A stretch of DNA of 45,587 nucleotides from an uncultured Gammaproteobacteria bacterium (GTDB lineage Bacteria > Patescibacteriota > Microgenomatia > UBA8517), in NCBI GenBank assembly GCA_964500695.1, contig CAZCNT010000004.1:1-45587 (forward strand), written 5' to 3'. The first letter of the stretch is position 1; every line of letters begins with the position of its first letter. Below the pieces are notes generated by a model that saw only the letters and a list, made by a program, of their open reading frames with translations, did no database searches and was not told the origin of the DNA. Below are positions 11,107 to 44,580 of the stretch, piece by piece. The position numbers and the translations under genes are program-made.

Positions 11107-12403
11107 TTTTATACTCCTTAGATATTAGATGATGATGGTACCTTCTTGCAAATCTATGAGCTTCGTCACGGATGCGGGAGACCAGGTTTAAAGCTGGACC
11201 TGTAAGTTTTACTTTATGAGTGCCGATAATTAAACGATCAGGATTTTTGGCAATTCCGACAACGGGCACATTAATTTTAAATGCCGAAATTTGCCCCTTT
11301 CCCCCGTCGACGATGATTAAATCAGGTTTCCCCCAGTCGTCAAAATGATTAGCTCTTCGCGTCGCCACTTCACTCATTGAATCGTAGTCATTTCCACCCT
11401 TAGCCTTCTTAATCTTAAAATGCCGGTAATATTCTTTTGTCGGCTCCCCTTTGATAAATGTAATCATTGAAGCCACCGGATTAGTCCCGGCAAGGTGGGC
11501 AACATCAAAACACTCAATCCTATTTAGTTTGGTAAAAGGTAAATGGTAAAAGTGTAAAAGTTTTTTTAATTCGGACATTTCTTTGGCTATTGTGTCTTCG
11601 TATAAATTTGGATTTTGCATGTAGAAATCGCTTGGCAATTGTGGTCTTGTAATATAATCCAGCTTTTCGATTTGATCACGAATCAACCTTGAAGCTTCAT
11701 AGTTTTGGAGATCGGAAAGTATGTTCATTTCTCTTTGCAGATCATTTTTTACGCCGGCAAACTTACCTGAAAGCACAAGGTTAACTCTTGTAATGTTTTT
11801 TCTGTAGTTTTTTTGTAAATCCATTTTTACTTTTTGATCTTTGATTTTTGATATTTCTGAAGGACATGGGTTGCATAGGCCAATTTGCGAATAAAAACAT
11901 TTGCGGGTTCCGATTTTGTGATCGGAATACGGAAATATTCCGCGAAGCATTCTTAAGACGGAGTGAACGCTGGAGGATGAGGGAAAAGGGCCAAAACTAG
12001 CTTTTAGGTTATAGCTATTAGCCGTTAGTTTTCGTACAGCCAGAACACGAGGAAAATTTTCATCAGTTATAGCTATATAAAGCGGGTGCTTGTCATCCTT
12101 CGCGACAATGTTATAGCGTGGCATATATTCCCTGATGAGTCTTGCTTCAAGAAGAAGTGCTTCCAATTCGTTTGTTACCCTGATATACGAAACAAAGTCG
12201 GCCTCCGCAATCATCCTGGCGGTTTTTGGTTCCAATTCCAAGTCAAAATATGACAAAATACGCCTTTTTAAATTTACGGCCTTACCGATATATATAGGTT
12301 TAAGGCTTTTAAAGAAAACATATATGCCCGGTGTTTGGGGAAGATCCTTGGGGGCTTTATGCCTTATGTTTATTTTGGGAAGTTTTTCCAGTAATTTTTG
12401 CAT
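11090..12403 (-). CDS. uvrC: excinuclease ABC subunit C (short form)
   Basis: GIY..YIGKA, RIECFD, PDLIIVDGGKGQ, RDEAHRFA. Confidence 0.93.
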   Translation of the reverse strand: MQKLLEKLPKINIRHKAPKDLPQTPGIYVFFKSLKPIYIGKAVNLKRRILSYFDLELEPKTARMIAEADFVSYIRVTNELEALLLEARLIREYMPRYNIVAKDDKHPLYIAITDENFPRVLAVRKLTANSYNLKASFGPFPSSSSVHSVLRMLRGIFPYSDHKIGTRKCFYSQIGLCNPCPSEISKIKDQKVKMDLQKNYRKNITRVNLVLSGKFAGVKNDLQREMNILSDLQNYEASRLIRDQIEKLDYITRPQLPSDFYMQNPNLYEDTIAKEMSELKKLLHFYHLPFTKLNRIECFDVAHLAGTNPVASMITFIKGEPTKEYYRHFKIKKAKGGNDYDSMSEVATRRANHFDDWGKPDLIIVDGGKGQISAFKINVPVVGIAKNPDRLIIGTHKVKLTGPALNLVSRIRDEAHRFARRYHHHLISKEYKNAGNI

Positions 12404-14273
12404 AGCTTGAAGCTATTTTAGCAGAAATACTTTTTAAAGTTATTTTTCTGATCCAAACAAATACGACCATCAATATGATAAAGAACACGGCAAATAAAGC
12501 CAAAAGACTATTAATCACCATTTGAGTTTTATTTGTAGGAATTTCAAGGCTCACCCTGGAGATTTTTACTCTGACAACGTTGGGGGTGTTTTTACCCAAG
12601 AGACTAAAAGGAACTTTTATTTGAAAATCGTAATTTGAATAAGGAGGCAGTACTTCAATAAAATCTCTGCTTTCTTCGGAATTGTCAAAATATATAAGCG
12701 GATAGAGTGAATATAGTGCCGAAGGTCCCGGGTTTACTATTCTCAAGCTAAAAACAGTACCTATAAATGGAACGGATTTTTTAGCGGTTATGGATATATT
12801 GGGCTGACTGATCCTATCTATCGGCAGTTTTCCAAAAGAGACAAAAACGTCCTTTTGAGGATCGCTTCCGAGTTTGTATGAACCGGGTGGGTAGGGCTTA
12901 GTCGAATCCTTTCCGTGAATAACGAAAGCAAAATGTCTGAGATCTAGTTTATCAAAGAAGTTTTCTCCTCCGGTAGTTGCGCCCCAAGTCGGATCTATCG
13001 GAATCCAAATCCCCTTATTGGCATCGAAATATTCGGGCCAACTGTGAAGTACGTCGGCAACCAAACCAAGAGGCTCAAGGTCCGGATTTTCGGTATAGGC
13101 ATATCCGTTTATTTCCCTGGCAGGAATGCCTGCCGCGCGGGCGATCGCAATAAAGGCATCCGTGAACTCCATGCAAATTGCGCTATTTGGATTTTTGAGT
13201 GCAGAAACTGCACCCAGTCTTTGAACATTCGGCTGAACTCTGGAGAGATCGTACTTTAACGTTTTGACGACATAATCGTAGATTTCCCTGGGAGTTCTGA
13301 GAGATAATGCCAGAGAATTAATGCTTGGATCATTAATTTGCCAGTATTGGCCTGCTTTCAGGTTTTGGGCCAAAGTCTCCTCACTTGGTCTGGGAAATGG
13401 CCTAAAGCTAGAAAAAATTTGTACGGAGCCTGAGGCGATTACGTCTAGGCGTTGTCTGGACGCCAGTTTATAAGTAGCAATCCAATTCCCGTCTTCATCA
13501 ATTTGAATTTGGGCAGGAGCGGGATCAATTTTTGAGAAGTAAATTTTTTGGAATGCCGTATCGGGAGGAAGAGCAATTTGAGTTTCCGAAGGGATGCTTA
13601 AAGGGTTTTCCAAATGATAAGAAAGATTAAAAGCAAATACCTGAAACTGACCGAAGGCCGCGGTTATTCCGGATTGTAAAAGCGCATTTTTAGAAAATGT
13701 ATAACTTTTATCAATATTGGTCGTATCAAGAGATTTTGGTTTGGGTGAAACATAAGCTTCCGCGCCAAAACTTGATGGGATAACAAGATTAACGGAATAA
13801 TTTCTAAAAGAACTATTTTCTGCCAAGCGTGGAATGGAAACTTCCCAAACTTCACCGGTCTTTACGGCGAACGCGGAGTTTTCATAAGTAATTAAAAAAT
13901 GCCGAACAGCATCTTTGCCGACAACCGCATCCGAAAAAGTGATAATTATTTTTGTAAGATCGGCGTTTTTTTGAAGATCTAACTTTAAAACGTTGCCCTT
14001 ATCGTCTACCGCCTGAACATTTTCCGCTTCAATATTTTCGAGTGTAAGCGTGTAGTTCGTTGCATAAAGAGAAGAAAAATTATTTTCCAAGGTCGTGTCA
14101 TGAGTAACAATCGTTTTACCCGAATCCTGAAAACGGTATGTGACAAGCGAATCTACAGAAAATTCCTCTTGAGCCCTTATGTAAGTGGGTAAAAGGTAAA
14201 AGGTAAAAGGTAAAAGAACAAAAAAAACAATAATTAGAGTCTTGAGTTTGGAAATTAGTATTTGAAAATTCAT
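12357..14273 (-). CDS. transglutaminase-like domain membrane protein
   Basis: signal peptide, catalytic C (AICMEF), H (LHSWPE), D (IDPTW), C-terminal TM. Confidence 0.88.
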   Translation of the reverse strand: MNFQILISKLKTLIIVFFVLLPFTFYLLPTYIRAQEEFSVDSLVTYRFQDSGKTIVTHDTTLENNFSSLYATNYTLTLENIEAENVQAVDDKGNVLKLDLQKNADLTKIIITFSDAVVGKDAVRHFLITYENSAFAVKTGEVWEVSIPRLAENSSFRNYSVNLVIPSSFGAEAYVSPKPKSLDTTNIDKSYTFSKNALLQSGITAAFGQFQVFAFNLSYHLENPLSIPSETQIALPPDTAFQKIYFSKIDPAPAQIQIDEDGNWIATYKLASRQRLDVIASGSVQIFSSFRPFPRPSEETLAQNLKAGQYWQINDPSINSLALSLRTPREIYDYVVKTLKYDLSRVQPNVQRLGAVSALKNPNSAICMEFTDAFIAIARAAGIPAREINGYAYTENPDLEPLGLVADVLHSWPEYFDANKGIWIPIDPTWGATTGGENFFDKLDLRHFAFVIHGKDSTKPYPPGSYKLGSDPQKDVFVSFGKLPIDRISQPNISITAKKSVPFIGTVFSLRIVNPGPSALYSLYPLIYFDNSEESRDFIEVLPPYSNYDFQIKVPFSLLGKNTPNVVRVKISRVSLEIPTNKTQMVINSLLALFAVFFIILMVVFVWIRKITLKSISAKIASSYAKITGKTSQNKHKA

Positions 14274-14300
14274 AGAAAATTGTAAATTGAAAATTCTAAA
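14187..14300. repeat. two period-7 tandem arrays
   Basis: gggtaaa(aggtaaa)3 at 14187-14214; ttggaaa/ttgaaaa/ttgtaaa/ttctaaa units at 14248-14300. Confidence 0.8.
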
Positions 14301-14309
14301 CTTAGTATA

Positions 14310-17213
14310 TCAGCGTAGGTAGAATCCTGTGTAGGAAGATTTGTTTTTTGTCAGATCAGTTACGCTCCCTGCGGTTACCACCTGTCCTCCGCCGTCTCCC
14401 CCTTCCGGACCCAAATCAATAATCCAGTCGCTGTTTTTGATAACGTCCAAATTATGCTCAATTATAAATACTGAATTTCCCCGGGAAACAAGGAGCTTTA
14501 AAACTTTTAAAAGTCTTTCTACGTCGGCAAAATGTAAGCCTGTTGTCGGTTCGTCCAGTATATAAACGGTTTTTCCTGTTGCGCGCCTGGCCAGTTCTGA
14601 AGACAGCTTAACACGTTGGGCCTCTCCACCGGAAAGTGTTGTAGCAGGCTGTCCAAGTGAAATATAGCCCAGTCCGACGAGTGACAAGGTCTCAAGTTTT
14701 TGTTCAATTTGGGGATGCGTATGGAAAAACTCCAGAGCTTCGTCAACTGTCATATCAAGAACTTCCGCGATATTTTTACCTTTATAGGAGACATCCAAAG
14801 TTTGTGTGTTGTATCTCTTGCCATGGCAAACATCACAGGTAACCCAGATATCGCTCATAAACTGCATTTCAATTTTTAGTTGCCCCTGACCTTCGCAGGC
14901 TTCACATCTTCCGCCCCTGACGTTAAAGGAAAATCTTCCCTTTTTATAACCTGCCGTTTTTGCGTCACGCGTTAAACTATATACATCACGGATAAGATCA
15001 AAGACTCCTGTATATGTGGCGGGGTTACTTCTGGGAGTTCTTCCTATTGGCGATTGGTCGATAAGTATTACCTTGTCGACATTTTCAATTCCTTCAAGGC
15101 GTTTGTATCCACCGGCTTCGCCTCGATATAGAGGATTTAATTCCTTCTGCAGAGCCGGATAAAGAGTTTCAACTAAAAGAGTTGATTTGCCGGAACCTGA
15201 AACACCGGTAATTGATACCAGTTTACCCAAAGGGAACTCAATATCAATATTTTTCAGGTTATATTTTGAACAACCGTATAGAAATAGTGATTGGTGACCA
15301 GTGATTAGTGATTGGTGAGAACTAACACTAATTCTTCGCTTCCCCGACAAAAATTGTCCGGTTAAAGATTTTGAGTCTGAACAAATTTGCTTAATCGTAC
15401 CGGCAGATACCACCTCACCACCAAGTTTTCCCGCCCCTGGGCCAAAATCAATAATATAATCACTCTCTTTCATCATGGTTGCATCATGCTCAACCACGAT
15501 TACAGTATTTCCCAAACTCTTAAGCATTTTAAGAGTATCGATAAGCTTGTAATCATCCCTCGGGTGAAGGCCTATCGTCGGTTCGTCAAGAACATATAGT
15601 ACTCCGGTAAGACCCGATCCGATTTGTGAAGCCAGCCTTATTCTTTGTGCTTCTCCCCCGGAAAGAGAGCCGGCAACTCTGTTTAGTGTTAAATACTCAA
15701 GACCCACGTTCAGTAAAAACTTAAGCCTTCCCTGCAGTTCCTTAATTACCAAGTTTCCTATTTCCGCCTCTCTTTCGTTCACTTTTTGGGCTTTAGTTAG
15801 CGAATCAACCCATTCGAAAGTTTTGGTTATGGAATATTCCGTTACATCCGCAATAGATTTTCCGTCTATTGTGATAGAAAGAGACTCGTTTTTAAGGCGC
15901 GTTCCTTTACAGTCAGGGCAAAGTCTTTCTCTCATATATTTTTTTATTTCCTCTCTTGCCCAATCGCTTTCCGTTTCAAGATACCGTCTTTCAAGGACGT
16001 TTATTACACCCTCAAATCTCTGCCAAATATCCGTTTCTTTTCCAAATCGGTTTACCCCGTGAACTTTATATTCCTCAGTTCCTGTCCCATTTAGTAAAAT
16101 TCCCTTTTCCTTATCGGACAAATCTTTAATCAGAGCCCGGGGGTTTATTCCTTGCACCTCACAGGCTCTCAATATTGTTCTGCCGTACCAAGTTTCGCGT
16201 TCAAACATGTTGGCAAAAGGTAAAATACCTCCTTCGGTAATTGTCAATTCTGGAGAAAAAACCAAGTCAGGCTCCACCTTTAGAATTTTCCCAAGTCCGG
16301 TACAGGTTGGGCAAGCTCCTTGCGGTGAATTAAAAGAAAAGCTTCGGGGTTCGATTTCGGGAAGTGAAATATTATCAATGGGGCACGCAAAACGTTCGGA
16401 ATACAAATGGTCCTCAAACTTTTTGGGTGAGGCCGGCATCGTAAATTCTTTATCGAGTACCTGGGCCATAACAACTACACCTTCAGAAAGATTTAGCGCC
16501 TGCTGGATAGAATCCGCCAGTCTCCCCTTAAGCTCACCTTTAAAGGACTCTCCTTTAAAGCTTGTCAAAGCAATTCGGTCAATGACGGCATCAATTGAAT
16601 GTTTATTGGTCTTGATTAGAATAAGATCTTCCGAAAGGTCGTGGATAAAACCATCGATTCTCACCTGCCTGTAACCTTTACTTTTTAAGTTTTCAAACAG
16701 TTGGGAAAATTCCCCTTTACGTTCCTGGACCATCGAAGAAAGAACCAAAAACCAGGCCTTTTTATCCTGCTTAACGGTTGTTTCGATTAAATTTAGAGAT
16801 TGATTAACAATTTGGTCCAATGTTTGGTGGGAAATCTCCCGTTTACAAATAGGACAGTGAGGGTGCCCTATTCTGGCAAAAAGTAAGCGAAGATAATCAT
16901 AAATCTCAGTTACCGTTCCGACAGTGCTTCTGGGATTATGGGAGGTGGTTTTTTGATCGATAGAAATGGCAGGGGAAAGCCCATCAATCGAATCCACGTC
17001 AGGCTTTTCCATGATCCCCAGGAATTGTCGGGCGTAAGAAGAAAGGGACTCGACGTAGCGCCTTTGCCCTTCCGCATAAACGGTGTCAAAAGCCAGTGAG
17101 CTTTTTCCGCTGCCGGAAACTCCCGTAAGAACAACCAACTTGTTCTTGGGAATATCAAGATTAATATTCTTCAGGTTATGTTGACGCGCTCCACGTATCT
17201 TTATATAGTCCAT
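14310..17213 (-). CDS. uvrA: excinuclease ABC subunit A
   Basis: two GVSGSGKS Walker A motifs, two LSGGEAQR signatures, Zn fingers; likely start MDYIKIRGA at 17213. Confidence 0.97.
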   Translation of the reverse strand: MDYIKIRGARQHNLKNINLDIPKNKLVVLTGVSGSGKSSLAFDTVYAEGQRRYVESLSSYARQFLGIMEKPDVDSIDGLSPAISIDQKTTSHNPRSTVGTVTEIYDYLRLLFARIGHPHCPICKREISHQTLDQIVNQSLNLIETTVKQDKKAWFLVLSSMVQERKGEFSQLFENLKSKGYRQVRIDGFIHDLSEDLILIKTNKHSIDAVIDRIALTSFKGESFKGELKGRLADSIQQALNLSEGVVVMAQVLDKEFTMPASPKKFEDHLYSERFACPIDNISLPEIEPRSFSFNSPQGACPTCTGLGKILKVEPDLVFSPELTITEGGILPFANMFERETWYGRTILRACEVQGINPRALIKDLSDKEKGILLNGTGTEEYKVHGVNRFGKETDIWQRFEGVINVLERRYLETESDWAREEIKKYMRERLCPDCKGTRLKNESLSITIDGKSIADVTEYSITKTFEWVDSLTKAQKVNEREAEIGNLVIKELQGRLKFLLNVGLEYLTLNRVAGSLSGGEAQRIRLASQIGSGLTGVLYVLDEPTIGLHPRDDYKLIDTLKMLKSLGNTVIVVEHDATMMKESDYIIDFGPGAGKLGGEVVSAGTIKQICSDSKSLTGQFLSGKRRISVSSHQSLITGHQSLFLYGCSKYNLKNIDIEFPLGKLVSITGVSGSGKSTLLVETLYPALQKELNPLYRGEAGGYKRLEGIENVDKVILIDQSPIGRTPRSNPATYTGVFDLIRDVYSLTRDAKTAGYKKGRFSFNVRGGRCEACEGQGQLKIEMQFMSDIWVTCDVCHGKRYNTQTLDVSYKGKNIAEVLDMTVDEALEFFHTHPQIEQKLETLSLVGLGYISLGQPATTLSGGEAQRVKLSSELARRATGKTVYILDEPTTGLHFADVERLLKVLKLLVSRGNSVFIIEHNLDVIKNSDWIIDLGPEGGDGGGQVVTAGSVTDLTKNKSSYTGFYLR
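15284..15318. repeat. period-7 tandem array inside uvrA
   Basis: atagtga ttggtga ccagtga ttagtga ttggtga. Confidence 0.85.
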
Positions 17214-17224
17214 AATTTTCTTTA

Positions 17225-17328
17225 CCCCGAATAAGCGCCCTTGCGACGCAAACGCGTAGCATTTGGGAGCAAGTAAGCTATGTTTGGGGCATACAAACTT
17301 CCCGCCGGTTTTAACCGGTGGAGTCAAC
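17225..17328. repeat. palindromic elements in the uvrA leader
   Basis: cccgccggtt-tt-aaccggtgga hairpin plus ccccgaata / tgtttgggg arms. Confidence 0.5.
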
Positions 17329-17369
17329 ATTATACCATCTCTAAAAGATTCCGAAGACGCCGAAGCTAT

Positions 17370-17729
17370 TCAAGTTTTTTTAGTTACGCCTAAACTCTCA
17401 AGAACTTTATTGATTACATTGTTTCCTCTTTTTATATCTTCTCTCGTATTGATAACGTCAGGTTCACTTTTTCGTTCCTTATAATCTTTGGTCCACCAAT
17501 CAAGATACTGTTGAACAATTTCAAGCGAGTCGTTGGGTACAAACCCTTCATCTCTAAACACTTCCAGATTTGCAGCTAACGAAAGGAACCAGCCTGTACG
17601 TACTTTCCAAGGGCCATCGGTTGAGTGAACCATACGATCTGGGATTTCTTCGGACCAGTTATCCCTCAACTCCACTAACGATTCCGTAAAGAGTTGCTTT
17701 GACAAAGACACTTTAATGTATTCCTTCAT
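17370..17729 (-). CDS. hypothetical protein
   Basis: 119 aa; ATGA overlap with the uvrB stop. Confidence 0.7.
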   Translation of the reverse strand: MKEYIKVSLSKQLFTESLVELRDNWSEEIPDRMVHSTDGPWKVRTGWFLSLAANLEVFRDEGFVPNDSLEIVQQYLDWWTKDYKERKSEPDVINTREDIKRGNNVINKVLESLGVTKKT

Positions 17730-19744: not shown

Positions 19745-19784
19745 AGGTGTTGCAAATACTTTAGCAAGTGATATTATAACTCAA

Positions 19785-20021
19785 ATGACGGAAAGGTATG
19801 GATGTTTGAAATATTTAGGCCCACTGGCAGAAATCTTTGCCGTTAAGTACAAACCCGAAAGACAGTTTGTGAAAACAAAGTCTGGTATTAAAGTCGAGCT
19901 ATTGAATGACGAGCCCCACGAGTATGCAGAAGCAATGGCCCAGACATTCTTGACCGGAAAGGCTACGTTTACATATTTCGACGAGGAAAAAGGTGAGTTT
20001 GTTATAGAAGAACTCGAATAG
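19785..20021 (+). CDS. hypothetical protein
   Basis: ATG at 19785 with TATTAT 7 nt upstream; this start avoids overlap with uvrB. Confidence 0.6.
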   Translation: MTERYGCLKYLGPLAEIFAVKYKPERQFVKTKSGIKVELLNDEPHEYAEAMAQTFLTGKATFTYFDEEKGEFVIEELE

Positions 20022-20148
20022 TATCACATCCCCCCTTATAACTTTTGCCAACATCTTCAAATTACATATCGTGTTTGATTAGGAAGGATCCTGTAGATCC
20101 TTCGACACTGTTCAGGCTCGCGCTCTATTTATATACAGAAAGATGTAC

Positions 20149-20206
20149 TTGACCACTTCGGGTAATCTTCGTACGCTATTCATAGCGATCACTTTCTTAT
20201 CACTAT
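20149..20206 (+). promoter_or_regulatory. lexA promoter and candidate operator
   Basis: TTGACC-17-TACGCT followed by ATAGCGAT-N9-ATCACTAT. Confidence 0.45.
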
Positions 20207-20235
20207 AGTGGTGAGTGAGCGTAGCGAATCGAACC

Positions 20236-21505: not shown

Positions 21506-21507
21506 GG

Positions 21508-23169: not shown

Positions 23170-23170
23170 A

Positions 23171-24448: not shown

Positions 24449-24453
24449 GTATC

Positions 24454-26724: not shown

Positions 26725-26819
26725 GGTGTAATTCTATATTATTCATTCTATATAGAAAAATTACTCTTGAAAAGAACTACTTGAACGCCCTTTACTTAGA
26801 TACTAGTATTTATCTAATT

Positions 26820-26837
26820 CAATCATTCGAATGGTTG
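26820..26837. repeat. palindromic direct repeat, copy 1
   Basis: caatcattcgaatggttg; first 16 bp identical to 27318-27333. Confidence 0.85.
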
Positions 26838-26847
26838 AGGTACAAAC

Positions 26848-27288: not shown

Positions 27289-27317
27289 AATAAGCAAACT
27301 TTGTTGTGGTACTACCC

Positions 27318-27333
27318 CAATCATTCGAATGGT
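27318..27333. repeat. palindromic direct repeat, copy 2
   Basis: caatcattcgaatggt. Confidence 0.85.
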
Positions 27334-27357
27334 AGAAGTGTTAGTAAGATGAAATTA

Positions 27358-28356: not shown

Positions 28357-28359
28357 TAT

Positions 28360-37823: not shown

Positions 37824-39084
37824 TATATCCAGTTACAAATTTTTCCTTAATCATTGTGTCGCCGTGTTTCTTGGAATAAACCAATACTGCCCCCGTACCC
37901 AAAGCCAAAATAGAAAGCATTGTGCGTATACCAAAAAGTTCCGTAATTGCCCCGGAAAAAAGTACAGGGAACACGGAAACTATAGTAACCAAAAAGTATA
38001 AGTTGCCAAAGACTCTGCCTCTTAGCCAAAGCGGTGTAGCAGACTGAAGATATGTAAGTGTTGGTAAGTTTATAGATACAAAACTAAACCCTGCTAATAC
38101 TAATAACATCGGCGTGATAATTACTCTGTAGAAAAGAGGCACAACAGGTACACCCAGGCTTATAAGCAAAACAGATGCCATTATTCCGATGAGTGCGCTT
38201 TCTATGATTTGCTTTTTTCTGTATCCATTTTTTATCAATCTCGGTATGTAAATCGAACCCAATATTGCGCCAATTCCTGCAGGTATGACGATTGAGACTC
38301 CCGAAAAATTCACTGATATTCCCAAAATTTGCACCGCAATAACAGGAAGACTCACAACTATTATCGCTAGACTTGCCTGCAATCCCAATAAAAGCAAAAG
38401 CGGGTAAAGTACTGATTTGTTTTCTTTGATAAACACATATCCTCCAATAGCGCTATCAAAAAAAGCTTTGAGAGCCTTTTCAAACTCTTCAGGTATTTTC
38501 TTTCCGGGCGTTGTCTCTTTCAGAAGACTTGTACTTACAAAAGCAACAAATAGAAATATGCTGCAAAGAATTAGCGCTCCGTCAAACCCAATGAATCTTT
38601 GTATTATTCCCGCAAATCCAAAACCAAATATCAATGACGCCTGGGAAGTGAGAAAAAATATGCTGTTGGCCTGAGGCAGATCATCTTTAGAAGCAGTGGA
38701 AGGTAAATATGCAGACTCTGCGGGTACATAAAATTGGTTTAGAAGCGAATAAATAAGGACTACGGCATAAAGAATAAATATTGACTGCTGGTTTACAAAA
38801 ATCGTGAGAAAGATTGTTATTGCCTGAAGCAAGTTTGCGATCATTAAAACTTTACGCCTGCTTACCAAGTCTACCGTTGCTGCCCCGATTGGACCGAATA
38901 CCAGAGCGGGAAGCGCGTATGCAACCCAAAGAAGAGAAGTTGCAATAGAAGAGCCGGTAACCGCATATAGTTTTGCCAAAAGCAAAAAATTCATAATATT
39001 TATGGTGACTTGAGACAGAATTTGCGAGGTCCATAAATATCTAAAATTAGATTTTGCTATTATATTTTTGAAATCGTTTGGCAT
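37813..39084 (-). CDS. MFS transporter
   Basis: about 12 TM; GATVDLVSRRKVL motif A; LRGRVFG. Confidence 0.9.
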   Translation of the reverse strand: MPNDFKNIIAKSNFRYLWTSQILSQVTINIMNFLLLAKLYAVTGSSIATSLLWVAYALPALVFGPIGAATVDLVSRRKVLMIANLLQAITIFLTIFVNQQSIFILYAVVLIYSLLNQFYVPAESAYLPSTASKDDLPQANSIFFLTSQASLIFGFGFAGIIQRFIGFDGALILCSIFLFVAFVSTSLLKETTPGKKIPEEFEKALKAFFDSAIGGYVFIKENKSVLYPLLLLLGLQASLAIIVVSLPVIAVQILGISVNFSGVSIVIPAGIGAILGSIYIPRLIKNGYRKKQIIESALIGIMASVLLISLGVPVVPLFYRVIITPMLLVLAGFSFVSINLPTLTYLQSATPLWLRGRVFGNLYFLVTIVSVFPVLFSGAITELFGIRTMLSILALGTGAVLVYSKKHGDTMIKEKFVTGYNEK

Positions 39085-39086
39085 AA

Positions 39087-40439
39087 TTAAAACCTTTCGT
39101 AAAGTTTTCCTAATTCAAAAAGTACGGGTTCAGAAAATCTTGGACCTATCAACTGAAAACCTAAAGGCAACCCCTGCTTGTTTTTTCCGTTGGGAACAGC
39201 CAAACCGGGAATTCCTGCCAGATTTGCAGGGGCAGTTAAAATATCAGCAAGGTACATCTTTAAAGGATCACTTGTTTTTTCTCCCAATTTAAAGGCTGCC
39301 GTAGGGGAAACGGGTGCAATAATAGCATCAACTTTAGAAAACGCTTCATTAAAATCCTGGATAATGAGTGATCTTACCTTTTGAGCCTTTAGATAGTAGG
39401 TATCGTAATACCCGGCAGACAGTACGTAAGTTCCAAGCATTATTCTTCTTTTTGCCTCATCACCGAATAAGGCTCTATCTTCTCCATATCGGATTCCCTC
39501 ATACCGACCCAAATTCGATGACACTTCTGCAGGTTGAATAATGTAATAAACTTCTACTGCATGTTTTGTGTTTGGAAGACTAACATCAACCAGTTCAACA
39601 CCCTTCTTTTTTAAAATTTGGGACGCTTCAATTACAGACTTTTCCACTTCCCGGTCAAGTCCTTCAGCAAAATACTCTTTGGGAATGCCAATTCGTAACT
39701 TGTGATTGGTGATTGGTAATTGGTGATTAGTGACAGTTGCATCGTACCCATCTTGGCCTTTAATAACATTAAATACGGTTTCAACATCGGTGACACAGTT
39801 TCCGAATACGCCGGGGCAATCAAGCGAACTGGCCATCGCAATAATTCCGTACCGCGAAACCGCCCCGTAAGTGGGCTTTAATCCGACAACTCCGCAAAAA
39901 CTGGCAGGCTGTCTTACTGAACCCCCCGTATCCGTCCCTGTTGCAATAAGCGTTAGTCCTGCCGAGACTGAAGCCGCTGAACCGCTACTTGAACCACCCG
40001 GAACATAATCTTTATTATTTGGATTTAAAGTAGGGCCAAAATCGGAATTTTCTCCGCTTGCGCCATGCGCCCAGGCATCGCAATTGGTTTTACCGATCAT
40101 GATGGCGCCGGCTTTTTCCATCCGCGCCACTACTGTGGCCGAGTAAACCGGAACATAGCTTTCCAAGATTTTGGATCCGGCAGTTGTTCTAACTCCTTTT
40201 GTCAAAAACAAATCTTTATGCGCAACCGTAACTCCAAGAAGCGGCAAATCCTGTAAACTTGAATCAATTAGTTTGGCCTTTTTATATGCATCCTCACTAG
40301 AAACTGAAATAAAGGCATTTAGACCTTTGTTCTTTTCAATTCTGGCCAGATACTCATCAACCAAATTCACCGCTGAGAACTTCTTCTTCATAAGTCCTTC
40401 TTTTGTTTCCTTTATGGTTACTGGTAATTTGCTTATCAT
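39087..40439 (-). CDS. gatA: Asp/Glu-tRNA amidotransferase subunit A
   Basis: amidase signature GGSSSGSA, GTDTGGSVRQPA, RRIMLGTYVLS. Confidence 0.96.
   Translation of the reverse strand: MISKLPVTIKETKEGLMKKKFSAVNLVDEYLARIEKNKGLNAFISVSSEDAYKKAKLIDSSLQDLPLLGVTVAHKDLFLTKGVRTTAGSKILESYVPVYSATVVARMEKAGAIMIGKTNCDAWAHGASGENSDFGPTLNPNNKDYVPGGSSSGSAASVSAGLTLIATGTDTGGSVRQPASFCGVVGLKPTYGAVSRYGIIAMASSLDCPGVFGNCVTDVETVFNVIKGQDGYDATVTNHQLPITNHKLRIGIPKEYFAEGLDREVEKSVIEASQILKKKGVELVDVSLPNTKHAVEVYYIIQPAEVSSNLGRYEGIRYGEDRALFGDEAKRRIMLGTYVLSAGYYDTYYLKAQKVRSLIIQDFNEAFSKVDAIIAPVSPTAAFKLGEKTSDPLKMYLADILTAPANLAGIPGLAVPNGKNKQGLPLGFQLIGPRFSEPVLFELGKLYERF
39692..39733. repeat. period-7 tandem array inside gatA
   Basis: ttcgtaa cttgtga ttggtga ttggtaa ttggtga ttagtga. 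Confidence 0.85.
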
Positions 40440-40496
40440 TTTAATCTATCTATTTGCTTACATCGGCTGATGCTGATATTTGTAGATTTGCTTATT

Positions 40497-40808
40497 CTAC
40501 TTATCAGTTCTCTCCGTAAGGATTGCACCGACTTTAAAATATCCATTGTATGTTTCCTCAGTCCCGCTTAATGCCTCATCTTGACTTAATGACCCATCAC
40601 TCACTACTCGATCCTCGCGGAAGACATCAACAAGACCCGTAGTTTGGCTGGTTGCATCAACTTTTGAAGTGTCAATTTTACTAAGGTTTCCGATGTAATC
40701 AACGATAGTAGAAAGCTGGGGAACAAATTTTTTGACTTCGTCCTCCGTCAAGTCCAACTTTGCCAACTCGGCAATGTGTAAAACGTCCGTCTTGGTCAAC
40801 TTTGCCAT
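40497..40808 (-). CDS. gatC: Asp/Glu-tRNA amidotransferase subunit C
   Basis: VLHIAELAKL, FRED, GYFKV; upstream of gatA. Confidence 0.92.
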   Translation of the reverse strand: MAKLTKTDVLHIAELAKLDLTEDEVKKFVPQLSTIVDYIGNLSKIDTSKVDATSQTTGLVDVFREDRVVSDGSLSQDEALSGTEETYNGYFKVGAILTERTDK

Positions 40809-40854
40809 GCCATAATAATAGCCGACTTACTGCATATTTTGAAGAGCCTTACAA

Positions 40855-41784
40855 TCAAAGCATTGATTGAAGGGCTCTTATACGGGCAAGTGTGGGAGGG
40901 TGGGTGTTAAAAAGTCCCGCAAAAGTACTGACAGCTTTGTTTACTTCTCCCTTGAAAGGATTAACAATGTAAAGATGGGCGGTTGCTTTATTTGCCGCTT
41001 CAAGGGGTTCAATATCCAGTGAAATCTTTTTAAGTGCACCAATCAGTCCCTGCGGCTGGCGTGTAATTTCAACAGACCCGCCATCCGCCATAAACTCACG
41101 CCTCCGGCTTATTGCCAGTTGAATCAGGGTTCCGATAATCGGAGAGAGAATGGCAAAAACAATTCCGAGAATGATAAAAATTGTACCTGCGCCCTCCCTG
41201 TCTCTGTCTCTTCCTCCGTTTCCCCAAAACATACTGCGGGTAAACCAATCACCCAATAGCGCAACAAGCCCTACCATTACGGCAACTACCGCCATAAGAC
41301 GTGTGTCATAATTTTTTATATGAGTTATTTCATGAGCCAAAACGCCTTCAAGCTCTGTTCTTGTCAGTTTTTCCAATAGTCCCGTGGTTACACAGATTAC
41401 GCCGTGATTCAGATCTCTTCCCGTTGCAAATGCGTTTGGCGCCGAATCATTAATAACATAAAGTTTTGGTCTTGGAATTCCTGCTCCTATGCACAAATTT
41501 TCGACAACGCTTTTATATAGTTTATCCTGCTCTTTTCCTGCAGGTCTTGCCCCGGAAATTCCGAGTACAATTTTGTCCGAGTAATAATAACTGACAAAGC
41601 TGGATACTCCGGAAATAATAAGAGCCACTCCAAAATATCCAAACCCACCCGGTGCATATCCCATGTAATACCCAAAGGCATTAGTTAGAACATAGACAGC
41701 GCCAAAAACAAATACAACAAACAACGCCACTATCACGGCGCTTTTGATTTTATTACTCGTCCGAACTTCGTAAATATTCTTCAT
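40855..41784 (-). CDS. htpX: zinc metalloprotease HtpX (M48)
   Basis: PNAFATG, HEITH, SRRREFMAD, THPP. Confidence 0.93.
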   Translation of the reverse strand: MKNIYEVRTSNKIKSAVIVALFVVFVFGAVYVLTNAFGYYMGYAPGGFGYFGVALIISGVSSFVSYYYSDKIVLGISGARPAGKEQDKLYKSVVENLCIGAGIPRPKLYVINDSAPNAFATGRDLNHGVICVTTGLLEKLTRTELEGVLAHEITHIKNYDTRLMAVVAVMVGLVALLGDWFTRSMFWGNGGRDRDREGAGTIFIILGIVFAILSPIIGTLIQLAISRRREFMADGGSVEITRQPQGLIGALKKISLDIEPLEAANKATAHLYIVNPFKGEVNKAVSTFAGLFNTHPPTLARIRALQSML

Positions 41785-42146
41785 GTCAAATCCAGATACT
41801 TCCGTGTTTCATCTACATTCCTTGGAAGACTTAATAAATCCTCGTCTTGAAGCAAAAAAAACAGGCTATATGTACAACCCTCCAATAATTCATCAGACAG
41901 CTCTTTATTGAGACAAATAATTTTCTTTAAAACGAGCGATGCTTTTTGATAGTTGCCGTGAAGAACAAGTTCCAATATTATCTTGCTTGGTTCCAAATTA
42001 TTCTTTTCTGCCAATGCAAAATCTACAACATTGTCAACGTGCCCGTCTCGAATCAATATCAACTCTTCAGGCAACAAAAGTTTGGTAGCTGATTTCTCCC
42101 ACGGCCAAAAATCCTTCTTCGTTGGATTGCGAAAATCTACTTCCAT
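41781..42146 (-). CDS. hypothetical protein
   Basis: 121 aa between lemA and htpX; ATGA-coupled to htpX. Confidence 0.7.
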   Translation of the reverse strand: MEVDFRNPTKKDFWPWEKSATKLLLPEELILIRDGHVDNVVDFALAEKNNLEPSKIILELVLHGNYQKASLVLKKIICLNKELSDELLEGCTYSLFFLLQDEDLLSLPRNVDETRKYLDLT

Positions 42147-42150
42147 AGTT

Positions 42151-42714
42151 TTACTTAAGATTAACCTTTGGAGTTTTCATTTCACTACCCTTGACATTAA
42201 ATGAATCTCCCTCCGACGGTGTTTCCAAACCTTTTAAGACTTCAAAATGAAACATATCCGCCACCAACTTACTTGGGAACGTGACTCGCTTAACATTGTA
42301 ATCGGCGGTTAGGTCGATTAGGAGGCGGCGCGCGTACATAACTTTATCGGATGTATCTCTAAGCTCGTCCATAAGTTGTCCTACGACATTATCAGCTTTA
42401 AGCTGTGGATTACTTTCAACTACAATTTGTAATTTTGGTAAAATTTCAGAAATTTTTTTTGATGCATCTTTACCTGCCGCCATTAACTTTCTAGCATCAG
42501 ATAGCATTTGCATGATTCCTTTTTCGTGTGTTAGGTATCCTTTGACTGAACTTTCCAAATTTGGAATAAGATCAACCTGCCTTTTAAGCTGATTCCCAAT
42601 TTCTTGAATAGAAGCTTTAATTCTGGCCTTGCTTGATACAAAGAAGTTATAAACAGAAACAACCCAAAGTATTACTAAAACTACTGCTACTAATAATATT
42701 GTTGTTATATTCAT
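42151..42714 (-). CDS. lemA: LemA family protein
   Basis: N-terminal TM, QLKRQVDLIPNL, ESNPQLKA, FPSKLVA. Confidence 0.92.
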   Translation of the reverse strand: MNITTILLVAVVLVILWVVSVYNFFVSSKARIKASIQEIGNQLKRQVDLIPNLESSVKGYLTHEKGIMQMLSDARKLMAAGKDASKKISEILPKLQIVVESNPQLKADNVVGQLMDELRDTSDKVMYARRLLIDLTADYNVKRVTFPSKLVADMFHFEVLKGLETPSEGDSFNVKGSEMKTPKVNLK

Positions 42715-42717
42715 AAA

Positions 42718-44580
42718 TTAATCACCCCGTTTCAACTCTTTTTTAAATCCCTCTAATGAGGAACAGTTTATCACATTTTTCTTTTCTGCCCAACCTCTTC
42801 TGGCAACGGAAACTCCCCAAATCATGTTATTCATTCCGTCAATGTGGTGTGCATCTGTTCCCAACGTTAATTTCACACCAAGTTTCACGGCTTCGCGAAC
42901 TAAAGTATCGGGAAGATCGAGCCGCATCGGGTCGCAGTTAATTTCAATCCATTTATTGTTTTCTAGACAAAAATCAAATATTTCGGGCCAATTAAGTTCA
43001 GCTCCTTCCCGTTCATTAAGCTTTCTGCCTGTGGGATGAGCAAAAATTTTTACTTTGGGGTGGGCTAGGGCAGTGAGAACGCGTTTGGTTTGTGCGTCTT
43101 TCTCAATACCAAAGCTTGAATGAATTGACACAAGGGCAAAATCCAAAGTTTCAAGTCCGGCTTCAGGAACAGGGAGACTCCCATCGGGTTTAATGTCTAT
43201 TTCAAGGCTATTAAAAACTTTTTTTAACCCCGCGTAGCCCTGAGCGAAGTCGAACGGGCGAAGTGGGGTTGAACCTATTCGATTATATTTTATACTCATA
43301 TTTTTAATTGAGTAATTAATCTGATCAACTTTTTCACTGTGGCCATCCGAAGTTTCACGAAGGAGGCCGCGACGAATTCTGTCATTAAGTTTATCAACTA
43401 CTTCGCGTTTGCGCTTTAGAATATCAATAATTTGAATATCTGTATGTCCTTTTTGACTGGGATTATGTTCCGTAAAGGCCAGATATTCATAGCCTAAATC
43501 TCTCCCCTTCCCGATTATTTCTTCCATTGAACTTTCACCTAAGTCATGACTGGTTTCAATATCAAAGCTTGAATGAATCTGAAGGTCTGCCTTAACATTA
43601 TCCAGTTCGACTAACTTTGGTAGACCATTAGGTTTACCCTGAGCCTGTCGAAAGGCAGCTTCGATTTCCCCTGTATCCTCCCTCAATTCCGGTTCGATAT
43701 AATCAAGACTCAAGTGTTTATAGAATTCCTCCTCCGTCTTAAATGTTTGGAGCTTGGAATTCGGATCTTGAGATTTACGGATGCCGTACTCGGAAAGGCT
43801 TAGGCCTTTCTTGAGCGCAAACTCACGCAACGCTATGTTGTGGTGTTTTGAGCCTGTAAAATGCTGCAAAAGAGCTCCGTAAGACTCCACAGGCTGGACC
43901 ATAAGATCAATTTGAACCCCACCGGGTACCAAAATAGAAGCTGTATGCTCCCCTTCTTCAATAATCTTTTGGGTTTTGGGGTACTTTGTAAAGTAGTCAA
44001 GAACACCTGGGCCATCATCTGTGACAATAGCGAGGTCAATATCCCCTACCGTGCTGGCCTTGCGTCTGAGGCTGCCTAGCGGGTCCACACGCTTAACTTT
44101 GGGGTTCTTGACTAAATAATCCATAATTTCCCCGGCAATCATGGAAGCGTAAGGCAACAGGTGTCGTTTAGCTTTCTTTTCCAGTTCATAAACCTCCTTA
44201 AGCTTTTCTTCGACCAAAGGGCGATCACCTTGAGCGATAAGTCGAAGGGCTGTTTTTATCCCAATTCCGGGAAGTTCCATCAACTTAAAAGCTTCCTTGG
44301 GAATTCCCTTCATCAGATCTTCAAAATGTTTTGATTTCCCGGTTCTAAAAAGTTCATCAAGATGTTCTGCTATGCCAGGACCTATTCCCGGAACGTCAGT
44401 CAGTTTTCCGTCATCCCAAAGATCCTTAAGTTCGCTTGTCGCATGTTCCACGGCATCTGCCGCCCTTTCGTAGGCGATTATTTGAAATTTGAATTTTTGA
44501 CTGTCCTGAAGCTGATATGAAGCTGCCACGTCCCTTAGAAGTTCTGCAATTTTGAGATTGGTTAGAGTTTGGGTACTCAT
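42718..44580 (-). CDS. polX: DNA polymerase X / PHP domain protein
   Basis: HhH VPGIG, GSLRR...GDIDL, HFTGSK, PHP motifs (QIHS, TEH, AHPTGR, GTDAH). Confidence 0.93.
   Translation of the reverse strand: MSTQTLTNLKIAELLRDVAASYQLQDSQKFKFQIIAYERAADAVEHATSELKDLWDDGKLTDVPGIGPGIAEHLDELFRTGKSKHFEDLMKGIPKEAFKLMELPGIGIKTALRLIAQGDRPLVEEKLKEVYELEKKAKRHLLPYASMIAGEIMDYLVKNPKVKRVDPLGSLRRKASTVGDIDLAIVTDDGPGVLDYFTKYPKTQKIIEEGEHTASILVPGGVQIDLMVQPVESYGALLQHFTGSKHHNIALREFALKKGLSLSEYGIRKSQDPNSKLQTFKTEEEFYKHLSLDYIEPELREDTGEIEAAFRQAQGKPNGLPKLVELDNVKADLQIHSSFDIETSHDLGESSMEEIIGKGRDLGYEYLAFTEHNPSQKGHTDIQIIDILKRKREVVDKLNDRIRRGLLRETSDGHSEKVDQINYSIKNMSIKYNRIGSTPLRPFDFAQGYAGLKKVFNSLEIDIKPDGSLPVPEAGLETLDFALVSIHSSFGIEKDAQTKRVLTALAHPKVKIFAHPTGRKLNEREGAELNWPEIFDFCLENNKWIEINCDPMRLDLPDTLVREAVKLGVKLTLGTDAHHIDGMNNMIWGVSVARRGWAEKKNVINCSSLEGFKKELKRGD
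43226..43371. repeat. nested and adjacent REP-like palindromes in frame in polX
   Basis: aaccccgcgtagc[cctgagcgaagtcgaacgg]gcgaagtggggtt (43226-43270) and tgtggccatccgaagtttcacgaaggaggccgcg (43338-43371). Confidence 0.75.
43636..43655. repeat. REP-like palindrome in frame in polX
   Basis: accctgagcctgtcgaaagg. Confidence 0.7.
44228..44249. repeat. REP-like palindrome in frame in polX
   Basis: ccttgagcgataagtcgaaggg. Confidence 0.65.

Follow-up and report, generated by a model that had tools for sequence, protein, structure and literature searches.

Among long simple repeats, heptamers show the strongest over-representation in many bacteria, and they have been without an explanation since the cyanobacterial STRR sequences, which Mazel reportedly described in 1990. 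Rickettsia palindromic elements (RPEs) are in-frame inserts, about 100-150 nt long, that can potentially form hairpins, and pathogens other than Haemophilus influenzae carry phase-variable heptanucleotide tracts. In H. influenzae itself, such a tract lies in the hmw1A promoter region (PMC8262952). A survey of prokaryotes found the same heptanucleotide excess among long SSRs and is the source of a proposed explanation through the footprint of the polymerase (Mrazek 2007, as cited in PMC4679880 and PMC4692102). The GGGNATC heptanucleotide repeats of Xanthomonas and Nostoc prefer about four units (PMC4692102), Beggiatoaceae carry TAACTGA repeats (PMC4679880), and Geobacter metallireducens has multicopy elements of four or five tandem heptanucleotides, the Gmet_H4 family with 49 copies, as well as other families that occur as opposite-strand pairs (PMC2700814). 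ORF-bearing 23S rRNA intervening sequences (S23p/IVP) include the Coxiella IVS (PMC4990558).

The window, by which we mean the whole 45,587-nt stretch analysed here, belongs to a 0.75-Mb genome (G000) of a groundwater Woesebacteria/Microgenomates (CPR) bacterium, and heptamer arrays run across essential repair and translation genes of this minimal genome. These arrays are members of the over-represented heptanucleotide repeat or STRR class known from other bacteria: directly tandem 7-nt units, dispersed families, about 4 units per array and an intergenic excess were all found.

Heptamer arrays of the window and the genome

All host genes of the window's arrays lie on the minus strand, and Pfam upholds the names that the initial annotation gave them. 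The features are listed with their lag-7 matches and, where TRF called a period-7 array, the coordinates and score of that call.

11090..19744, minus strand: gene block (ORFs, Pfam) of uvrC (11090-12403), a transglutaminase-like gene (12357-14273), uvrA (14310-17330), a small ORF (17370-17729) and uvrB (17726-19744)
11530..11561, minus strand: array in uvrC, sense unit CTTTTAC; lag-7 16/25; TRF 11531-11560, score 44 (period 7) and 51 (period 14)
11824..11858, minus strand: array in uvrC, plus-strand unit TTTTTGA; lag-7 21/28, lag-scan maximum 17/21; TRF 11833-11856, score 34
11994..12028, minus strand: degenerate array in uvrC, NNNTTAG units, moderate; lag-7 17/28, lags 5, 6, 8, 9 and 10 at 8 or fewer; TRF score under 30
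14187..14216, minus strand: near-perfect (GGTAAAA)x4 array in the transglutaminase-like gene; lag-7 20/21; TRF 14188-14216, score 58, 100% matches
14248..14300, minus strand: degenerate array in the transglutaminase start region; lag-7 28/46; TRF 14277-14300, score 34
15284..15318, minus strand: five-core TCAC array in uvrA, 32-nt five-core span; lag-7 20/28; TRF 15285-15318, score 40
19023..19057, minus strand: TCAC-family array in uvrB; lag-7 21/28; TRF 19031-19057, score 40
36468..44580, minus strand: gene block (ORFs, Pfam) of gatB (36468-37823), an MFS transporter (37813-39084), gatA (39087-40439) and polX (42718-44580)
36918..36947, minus strand: claimed array in gatB (tatctga), weak, not counted; lag-7 11/23, a score equalled at 3.3% of window positions; no TRF report
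37456..37506, minus strand: two sub-arrays in gatB; lag-7 32/44; TRF 37474-37506, score 52
39692..39733, minus strand: TCAC-family array in gatA; lag-7 27/35; TRF 39702-39733, score 50 (period 7) and 58 (period 21)
43745..43772, minus strand: claimed array in polX (gcttgga), weak, not counted; lag-7 12/21; no TRF report

A short period-7 array at 21697-21712, also called by TRF, was missing from the earlier list.

The initial annotation had counted at least 11 period-7 arrays written in frame. Eight of these are strong and one (11994) is moderate, but those at 36918 and 43745 are weak by both lag-7 and TRF; the arrays are indeed translated, except that 14248-14300 is only partly coding because the start codon (14273) falls within it, along with spacer sequence from between that codon and the uvrA stop (14310). 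A 4-nt phase break ascribed to two arrays is clear in gatB, where ATTTCAA/ATTTTGA is followed by ATTTCGG x4.5 with an offset of ATTT between the sub-arrays (peptide GKFEILNPKSEINSKFEI); at 14248 a register shift is visible in what is a degenerate array. The peptides quoted earlier are reproduced by translation. The uvrC array at 11530..11561 reads LLHFYHLPFT (about aa 281-291), immediately ahead of the RNase H-like domain, and 14187..14216 reads LLPFTFYLLP in the hydrophobic N-terminal segment of its protein. The uvrA units TCACCAA, TCACTAA, TCACTGG, TCACCAA and TCAC encode SHQSLITGHQSL (about aa 671-683), the uvrB array SAITNHQSP in a domain 2 loop (about aa 229-241), and the gatA array VTNHQLPITNH (about aa 236-250). 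For annotation, arrays of this kind are the reason why proteins that are otherwise conserved contain strange low-complexity peptides such as SPITNHQ and LLPFTFY. The gatA peptide recurs in an unrelated gene at C3:39654-39685, where the DNA differs at 2 positions.

The anticipated lag-7 excess over codon-shuffled controls was found genome-wide. Across 798 ORFs, segments with at least 17/21 matches number 52 at lag 7 against 0.3 in codon shuffles, with a lesser excess at lag 8 (11 against 0.1) and 25 against 0.5 at lag 14, and every other lag yields at most 4 segments, near chance. The window ORFs give 6 such segments at lag 7 (0.0 in 30 codon shuffles), 1 at lag 14 and 0 at lags 3-6, 8-13 and 15. 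At a TRF score of at least 40, the genome has 67 arrays of period 7 and 24 of period 8, where 5 dinucleotide shuffles give 0.0 and 0.0. Two of the 11 claimed arrays, no better than about 1-3% of window positions, would fit an origin by chance or as an artefact of the genome's A+T-rich composition and codon bias, but this explanation is refuted, and its probability is virtually nil, given shuffled controls of about 0 beside these counts and sister genomes of similar composition with 0-4 arrays.

The genome's 120 period-7/8 arrays, most with 4-5 units, lie inside ORFs (65), at ORF edges (17) or between genes (38). ORF calling was crude (longest ORFs of at least 70 aa), so a few of the inside arrays fall in doubtful ORFs (e.g., C3:15786). 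With about 8% of the genome outside these ORFs, intergenic enrichment is about 4-fold, and many intergenic arrays form inverted pairs. The period is 7, less often 8, and 9-10 near four-helix-bundle (IVP) genes. A typical array consists of four full periods plus a fifth core, with lengths peaking at 30-33 nt and a copy number of 4.0-5.0 in 47 of 67 period-7 arrays. The AATCACC/TCAC unit family occupies 31 loci, with three cores in 3, four in 12, five in 16 and none longer; other recurring units are AAATTCT, AAAAGGT, AAACTCT and AAGTACT and the octamers AAATAAGC and AACCAATC. Mismatches in 38 arrays are concentrated in certain columns (sum of squares 333 against 294 ± 12, p = 0.003), leaving a 4-5-nt core and a variable spacer. 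Some relatives have longer arrays, with 11 of 29 at 6.1-8 copies in G018 and some above 8 in G010.

Length and descent of the array sites

Sequence comparison shows that in-gene arrays occupy the least conserved, most indel-prone segments of their proteins, amino acid identity to the sister genome G008 being 35% in array windows and 66% in control windows. The proposal that arrays are tolerated in variable segments holds on this count, and the UvrB array is predicted to be a low-confidence coil between two strands (pLDDT 61 at 231-240, below 50 at 236-238).

Most in-gene arrays also fill as many codons as ordinary ortholog sequence. Relative to G008, which has almost no arrays, the net length difference is 0 at 24 of 57 array sites and at most one residue in either direction at 34; relative to G023, the counts are 24 and 33 of 52. 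Net gains of at least 8 residues occur at just 9% of sites against G008 (5/57, including GatB 37456, sites that have the look of whole-array insertions) and 6% against G023, on which basis in-frame mobile insertion (MITE- or RPE-like) was rejected, and the differences contain no +7 or +14 residue class. Reading frames survive because the arrays mostly replace existing codons rather than adding new ones. Control windows, however, show a net difference of 0 in 84-85% of cases and arrays less often, in 42-46%, so that arrays do go together with indels.

Since arrays decayed in G008, a net 0 against it says nothing about how the sites first arose, and the evidence on first origin is that of five proteins compared with solved homologs of other phyla, together with the UvrB loop. 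The uvrC array at 11530..11561 is net 0 against both G008 and G023, which has an array of a different unit at the orthologous site, and aligns to Thermotoga maritima UvrC (2nrt_A) with a 4-residue gap (+4) adjoining it. The uvrA array is net −2 against G008 and +1 against G. stearothermophilus UvrA (2r6f_A), the gatA array is net 0 against G008 and G023 with no insertion relative to Aquifex GatA (3h0l_A), and UvrB is +4 against its solved homolog. At 14187..14216, the difference is −1 or 0 against G008, depending on the flank chosen, and 0 against G023, where a related CTTTTAA-type array sits at the orthologous site. The gatB array at 37456..37506, +13 residues against G008, +10 against G023 and +4 against T. 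maritima GatB (3al0_B), is a true net insertion, the sole case among the window's arrays. At the UvrB loop, 9 further distinct orthologs out of 95 carry arrays of other units; loops with arrays have 10, 10, 11 (four times) and 14 (four times) residues, mean 12.0, and those without have a mean of 12.1 and 10 residues in 44 of 85, the range being 10-14 with or without an array. An insertional route nevertheless exists in relatives, as UvrB of G034 and G035 carries a complete inverted pair of arrays as an in-frame insert at residue ~410; G039 and G022 have one array plus a small palindrome at that site. For most arrays, then, there are few or no gaps against non-periodic orthologs, an outcome that the initial annotation had named as refuting its idea that a dedicated process deposits or expands them; a minority, notably GatB 37456-37506, do look like insertions.

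Nor are the sites freshly hit. G023 has an array at the same site in 11 of 52 cases, against 1 of 166 control windows of the same proteins (G018, 1/26; G010, 1/19; G008, 0/57; G017, 0/28), and the orthologous segment fits the G000 consensus unit in phase (at least 6/7) in 25% of cases in G008 and 37% in G023; mismatched sites do so in 2-3%. A tree of 121 proteins, built from sequences projected onto G000 coordinates, places G008 as sister of G000 with G023 outside (support 1.000), and because G023 branches outside this pair, sites common to G000 and G023 predate G008 and decayed there. The arrays have thus been inherited at orthologous sites between genera, the unit drifting in phase, and have turned non-periodic in the G008 lineage. 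Their flanks are only 65% identical as DNA, yet the arrays are 85-86% internally matched in both G000 and G023, which speaks for active maintenance.

This pattern is difficult to reconcile with ordinary microsatellites, in which slippage of a polymerase with a 7-nt footprint would create and resize arrays and selection would keep the in-frame states. Slippage draws on the prior heptanucleotide excess and the footprint proposal, and MutS was found in 0 of 5 genomes searched, but it is equally missing from the array-free G008 and G017 among them. The +7 and +14 residue classes are lacking, no unit-number differences between orthologs were found, and copy number is sharply peaked at 4-5, with no longer TCAC arrays. 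At the uvrC, transglutaminase, uvrA and uvrB arrays, groundwater contigs of 94-100% identity (4 runs, 3 studies) have no gaps, and no indel is listed within any array among strain-level contigs, a weak argument as contigs can miss rare length variants. We consider slippage highly unlikely; it does not predict that arrays mostly cost no length, that sites persist across genera with a unit drifting in phase, or that an entire array population vanishes in sister lineages. A phase-variable SSR (contingency locus) was rejected for the same want of unit-number polymorphism in the contigs of the 4 runs and in orthologs.

Inverted arms and four-helix-bundle genes

The initial annotation linked similar arrays to four-helix-bundle genes (IVP, PF05635), noted none in the window and suggested that its arrays might be footprints of such an element. 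This link is real in this genome: of 13 PF05635 matches, 6 have arrays as inverted arms on each side and a further 4 on a single side, compared with 20 of 802 other ORFs that have arrays on each side, and 8 of the 120 arrays are no more than 200 nt from an IVP gene where 1.4 are expected. Cassettes with arms of phased 7-10-nt repeats from shared families occur in G000; the gene at C2:50554-50868, for example, is flanked by TCAC-family arrays like those of uvrA, uvrB and gatA. The window's contig, C4, has 0 PF05635 matches, as claimed. Its arrays were rejected as a cassette of this kind, with no PF05635 ORF between arms, no inverted partner listed on C4 (at least 14/18 within 450 nt) and folds like those of shuffles. 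In-gene arrays are in general solitary, unstructured and translated: only 10 of 65 have such a partner, compared with 16 of 38 intergenic arrays, and as RNA they are no more stable than shuffled sequences (z +0.36 to +0.90 for three, with no stable fold at 14248..14300 at z +0.36, and −0.36 for the uvrA array).

The footprint idea fares less well. G023 has 36 arrays (score at least 40) in 590 kb, matched as well as those of G000, with no PF05635 match and no match to a lineage-specific HMM at E ≤ 1, and G025 has 22 TCAC-array windows and no PF05635 match; with such array-bearing relatives, the link between IVP genes and arrays is an association only. A dedicated element or process could still insert or expand arrays, those in genes being footprints or solo arms of IVP cassettes or of gene-less hairpin forms. 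The shared IVP arms, the inverted intergenic pairs, the complete hairpin pairs in UvrB of G034 and G035 and the +10 to +13 residues of GatB 37456 would all follow, as would the sister contrasts (13 IVP genes in array-rich G000 and 0 in array-poor G008; 5 in G018 and 0 in G017). Yet large net insertions are few, UvrB loops with arrays are not longer, arrays resemble orthologous sequence in phase, partners are scarce in genes and G023 and G025 do without PF05635, so that we think this origin unlikely, though worth keeping in view.

If, on the other hand, the five cores at 7-nt spacing were phased targets of an oligomeric single-strand nucleic-acid-binding protein, selection would keep the period. 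The binder could be the pentameric IVP protein, whose paralogs would differ in the core that they read, or a protein of the cold-shock type; for CspB, binding to heptamer repeats at one protein per heptamer is noted in PMC4679880. The core-and-spacer structure, the end of TCAC arrays at five cores and the unstructured RNA of in-gene arrays agree with this, and an IVP protein of G000 matches PDB 2GSC (E 7e-16, 5 chains), an assembly of five four-helix bundles going by the title of the structure paper as PMC10053308 lists it among its references. However, array-rich genomes without IVP genes exist, G018 and G010 have longer arrays, the sites follow no positional logic, lying dispersed over variable loops whose genes are unrelated, and the entire population is gone from G008 and G017 without visible compensation. 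Binding sites are thus a quite improbable explanation.

Putative upkeep of the arrays and comparison with known repeats

The explanation we favour, and hold to be reasonably probable, is that the arrays are old, of heptamer/STRR type, and owe their continued periodicity to a conversion-like process that leaves length unchanged, with selection acting as a filter. They would then belong to a set of short phased repeats spread over the whole genome, most of them old in G000 and not new insertions. We infer the mechanism from the pattern: homogenisation of neighbouring 7-nt registers, inside an array or among arrays that share a family, would keep the periodicity without units being gained or lost, and if it is length-neutral, reading frames would survive automatically. 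Selection would need only to remove stop-containing orientations and intolerable residues. The putative homogenising factor would be lineage-labile, and IVP genes would share the arrays without being needed for their upkeep.

A bolder possibility, speculative and in our view improbable, is a lineage-labile conversion activity that would homogenise registers and turn patches of ~32 nt, at unchanged length, into a phased series of five 7-nt (or 8-nt) units, in coding and non-coding DNA alike. G000, G023 and G018 would have it, and their near relatives G008 and G017 would have lost it, with pentameric IVP proteins as passengers or readers rather than makers. If such a register-rewriting activity exists, then the decades-old heptamer excess in bacteria would be the trace of a specific molecular machine. 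With two pairs of sister genomes, one member rich and the other poor in arrays (G000/G008 and G018/G017), the factor responsible could feasibly be sought by gene presence. DGR targeting, in which RT and Avd carry out length-neutral rewriting, was rejected, as RVT_1 has 3 matches in G000 and 0 in the array-rich G023 and G018.

Among known systems, the phase-variable tracts of pathogens share the 7-nt tandem unit, but they are described as varying in unit number and switching genes, while the arrays here show no such variation in strains' contigs or orthologs and sit in essential genes. Like RPEs, they are repeats that occupy permissive sites of conserved genes and are translated with them; unlike RPEs, most add no length and have no fold. 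The 13 PF05635 genes of G000, most of them flanked by inverted arrays that match in period and unit family, resemble the 23S rRNA IVS/IVP, from which the window's arrays differ as translated protein parts with no IVP gene, partner arm or stem. The Gmet_H4 elements are presented in the text cited as putative regulatory elements, without analysis of frame, orthologs or evolution (PMC2700814). The STRR, GGGNATC and TAACTGA repeats share with the arrays here a 7-nt unit, many dispersed loci, few unit families, about four units, intergenic enrichment and occasional inverted pairs. Unlike those repeats, 65 of the 120 arrays here lie inside ORFs, essential genes included, and the units are A+T-rich and varied rather than G-tracts; three features of the array sites were not found in the heptamer-repeat literature searched, namely their inheritance, their mostly unchanged length and their wholesale loss from sister lineages.

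Period-7 arrays in the window and across the genome

The source genome (G000) comprises 752,771 bases in 46 contigs and is 97.5% complete, the window being C4:1-45587. Judged by UvrB, its nearest named relatives are MAGs whose titles read Candidatus Woesebacteria, Microgenomates or Patescibacteria group. Many MAG records with UvrB 60-83% identical (L179, L182, L186 and others) are titled 'uncultured Gammaproteobacteria', but these titles, which belong to one third-party set, look wrong given their conflict with the other relatives. The gene names of the initial annotation were borne out by Pfam, and all seven host genes lie on the minus strand:

11090-12403, minus strand, UvrC
12357-14273, minus strand, transglutaminase-like protein
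14310-17330, minus strand, UvrA
17726-19744, minus strand, UvrB
36468-37823, minus strand, GatB
39087-40439, minus strand, GatA
42718-44580, minus strand, PolX

The UvrC is short (437 aa), with GIY-YIG and RNase H-like domains and no match for a helix-hairpin-helix tail, and its ORF overlaps that of the transglutaminase-like protein by 47 nt.

Eleven arrays of 7-base units had been claimed in these genes. By per-claim lag statistics, in which self-matches are counted at a 7-nt offset, 8 are strong, and the remaining 3 are as follows:

11994-12028, minus strand, moderate array, lag-7 17/28
36918-36947, minus strand, weak array, lag-7 11/23
43745-43772, minus strand, weak array, lag-7 12/21

TRF gives nine period-7 rows in the window. 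The initial annotation had proposed a lag test, which we ran by counting ORF segments with 17 or more self-matches in 21 and setting them against codon shuffles. The window ORFs yielded 6 at lag 7 (0.0 in the shuffles), one at lag 14 and none at lags 3-6, 8-13 or 15. The 798 ORFs of the genome yielded 52 at lag 7, 11 at lag 8 and 25 at lag 14, where 0.3, 0.1 and 0.5 are expected, and no more than 4 at every other lag. At a TRF score of at least 40 the whole genome contains 67 period-7 and 24 period-8 arrays, and dinucleotide shuffles contain 0.0 of either kind. The period is thus mostly 7 and sometimes 8, the excess spans the whole genome, and the observation of period-7 arrays is confirmed.

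After merging, the genome has 120 period-7/8 arrays, 65 inside ORFs, 17 at ORF edges and 38 intergenic, with ORFs called crudely and about 8% of the genome outside them. Unit families recur, the largest being AATCACC/TCAC with 31 loci, followed by the heptamers AAATTCT, AAAAGGT, AAACTCT and AAGTACT and the octamers AAATAAGC and AACCAATC. Size is narrowly distributed: copy number is 4.0-5.0 in 47 of the 67 period-7 arrays, and the commonest lengths are 30-33 nt (period 7) and 35-36 nt (period 8). TCAC arrays have the core at both ends, with 3 cores in 3 arrays, 4 in 12, 5 in 16 and more than 5 in none, and mismatch columns cluster into a conserved core and a variable spacer (p=0.003, 38 arrays). 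Longer arrays are also present in the relatives G018 and G010. An inverted partner lies within 450 nt of 16/38 intergenic arrays, as opposed to 10/65 in-gene arrays, and the window's arrays fold no better as RNA than shuffles do.

In 47 of the 65 in-gene arrays the consensus unit is open in one orientation only. Arrays with the sense unit TTTTACC encode LLPFT(F/I/L)YLL in hydrophobic, membrane-like segments (window 14187-14216; source genome C5:38192-38230 and C10:21402-21426), and TCAC-family arrays encode SPITNHQ in polar loops, so that unit type seems to be sorted by protein context.

Length of array-bearing sites

The initial annotation took the arrays to be deposited or expanded by a dedicated process. 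Our main length comparison was with the complete genome of an array-poor near relative, G008, which has 4 period-7 arrays with a score of at least 40 in 0.98 Mb.

Array-bearing sites compared with G008; controls are windows in the same proteins
Net length 0: array windows 24/57; control windows 85%
Difference of at most 1 residue: array windows 34/57; control windows 89%
At least 8 residues longer: array windows 5/57 (9%); control windows 2%
Amino-acid identity: array windows 35%; control windows 66%

The identity values agree with the earlier suggestion of tolerant sites, the arrays lying in variable coil or linker segments. If whole units were gained in frame, length differences of +7 or +14 residues would be predicted, and the absence of such a class from the comparisons with orthologs speaks against such gain. 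Against solved homologs of other phyla, the GatA array shows no insertion and the UvrA array one extra residue, the UvrC array aligns position by position next to a gap of 4 residues, and the UvrB and GatB arrays are longer by 4 residues each. As a replicate of this length test, G018 against a further relative, G017, gave 9 alignable sites, too few to count, with net 0 in 5. The only clear insertion among the window's arrays is in GatB (37456-37506), with +13 against G008 and +10 against another relative, G023. Judged from these alignments, the arrays are mostly not inserts but occupy the same length as their orthologous segments.

Among 110 orthologous UvrB loci, strong arrays occur at just three places, and 14 of the 17 strong-array rows fall in one loop, residues 228-245, with at least 8 different units. 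In 10 of 95 distinct orthologs this loop bears an array, and its lengths are then 10, 10, 11, 11, 11, 11, 14, 14, 14 and 14 residues; the 85 array-free loops average 12.1 residues, with exactly 10 in 44. Two orthologs therefore have the ancestral 10-residue loop wholly filled by array. The predicted structure shows the array in coil flanked by strands 217-224 and 241-244; the pLDDT is 61 for residues 231-240 and drops under 50 at 236-238. An insertional route of acquisition also exists: near residue 410, four relatives have in-frame insertions of 16-36 residues, which in G034 (L260, G034:C8:6450-6710) and G035 (L261, G035:C21:18580-18850) consist of a complementary pair of heptamer arrays plus a short loop, and in G039 (L262) and G022 (L259) of one array and a small G+C-rich palindrome.

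Two further observations concern these genes. In a close relative, L185 (LCBU01000016.1, Candidatus Woesebacteria GW2011_GWA1_41_7), the UvrB frame is interrupted by a stop codon at residue 281 of the stretch that matched, which may reflect a pseudogene or a sequencing error. In a contig from one sequencing run (X15), the end of the uvrA array (15318) and the beginning of the uvrB array (19024) are joined with one letter between; we do not read this joint as biology but probably as a product of the assembly graph, the two arrays being similar.

Persistence of sites and possible drivers

Array sites are shared with G023 far more often than control windows. G023, whose array figures cover 590 of about 768 kb, has an array at 11 of 52 in-gene sites of the source genome, compared with 1 of 166 control windows taken from those proteins; the corresponding count is 1/26 in G018, which is more distant and array-rich, and 0/57 in G008. 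At gap-free sites the consensus unit of the source genome is matched at no fewer than 6 of 7 positions by 37% of orthologous segments in G023 and 25% in G008, against 2-3% among mismatched site pairs; units at shared sites thus differ yet are related in phase. In a FastTree phylogeny of 121 concatenated proteins the sister of the source genome is G008, with G023 outside and G018 and G017 as a further pair (all support 1.000). Arrays common to the source genome and G023 are thus older than the split from G008, and in G008 they have decayed into ordinary sequence of equal length.

Flanking DNA is about 65% identical between these genomes, and yet the internal match of the arrays is 85-86% in the source genome and in G023 alike, which argues for continued re-homogenisation without length change. 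No array indels were seen in Logan contigs, which are assembled, so that rare variants would go unseen. No RNA data set was listed as containing the stretch. Taken together, the comparisons show arrays compatible with the translated frame, mostly length-neutral, inherited, and lost in sister lineages.

We infer that homogenisation would be conversion-like, acting among adjacent 7-nt registers or among arrays of the same family. The peptide VTNHQLPITNH is encoded both in gatA (39702-39733) and in an unrelated gene (C3:39654-39685), by arrays whose DNA differs at two positions and which have a variant middle unit in common, and this hints at exchange between them. Selection would then purge stop-bearing orientations and sort the units, LLPFT-type hydrophobic ones to membrane segments and SPITNHQ-type ones to loops. 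If units are never gained or lost, a non-triplet period is harmless, which would answer the earlier puzzle of its presence in essential genes.

Two other drivers were considered and rejected. One is loss of mismatch repair: MutS_V was not found in 5/5 genomes, array-rich and array-free alike, and so does not discriminate between them. Rewriting of the RT/DGR type has 3 RVT_1 matches in the source genome to offer and none in the array-rich G023 and G018. Each of these three genes (C14:5182-6318, C3:38113-39273 and C36:1087-3555) is near a weak or divergent Avd-like four-helix-bundle match, and the loci are likely diversity-generating retroelements; the array-bearing sites C3:39654 and C3:40068 are in the gene right behind one of them. 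Twelve ORFs are present in the source genome and G023 without a G008 match, 1 of which also matches G018 (the other genomes being partly covered, power is low), and by-eye inspection of the 12 gave no obvious nucleic-acid enzyme.

Four-helix-bundle genes and known heptamer repeats

The initial annotation further suggested that the arrays may be footprints of an element with a four-helix-bundle (PF05635, IVP) gene. The association itself is real in the source genome: of its 13 PF05635 matches, none of them on C4, 6 are bracketed by TRF arrays and 4 more have arrays on a single side; of the other ORFs, 20/802 are bracketed. These arrays have periods of 7, 8, 9 or 10 and are inverted. As footprints, however, most arrays do not qualify, being mostly of ortholog length, and only 8/120 have an IVP gene within 200 nt. 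In the six genomes whose arrays were sampled, array density varies together with the number of IVP genes in two sister contrasts (13 IVP genes in the source genome and 0 in G008; 5 in G018 and 0 in G017). The exception is G023, whose 36 arrays in 590 kb equal those of the source genome in internal match, and where PF05635 had no match in the whole genome and an HMM of the source genome's IVP proteins none in 590 kb. Another relative, G025, has 22 TCAC-array windows and likewise gave no PF05635 match. Although IVP genes carry the same arrays, the upkeep of the arrays does not depend on them. One IVP cassette with octamer arms (C5:42830-43330) lies directly 3' of a tRNA-like sequence, and one IVP protein matches PDB 2GSC, whose paper, by its title in the reference list of PMC10053308, concerns an assembly of five four-helix bundles.

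The initial interpretation is partly supported: tolerant loops and the association with IVP genes stand, but not, for the majority of arrays, deposition, expansion or an origin as footprints. Within the library searched, we found no paper tying heptamer arrays to PF05635/IVP genes, and none on length-neutral, site-persistent in-frame or concertedly evolving heptanucleotide arrays. Elhai reportedly described, in 2008, small dispersed repeats in heptamer arrays. Published work reports heptamer over-representation, a four-unit preference and a non-coding bias in Xanthomonas and Nostoc (PMC4692102), and, for TAACTGA repeats, 11 ORFs with reverse-orientation repeats and the idea of a polymerase footprint behind heptamer repeats (PMC4679880). 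To these the present analysis adds length, phase and sister-lineage tests on in-frame heptamer arrays, which are a coding, length-neutral variant of this known, unexplained class of repeats.
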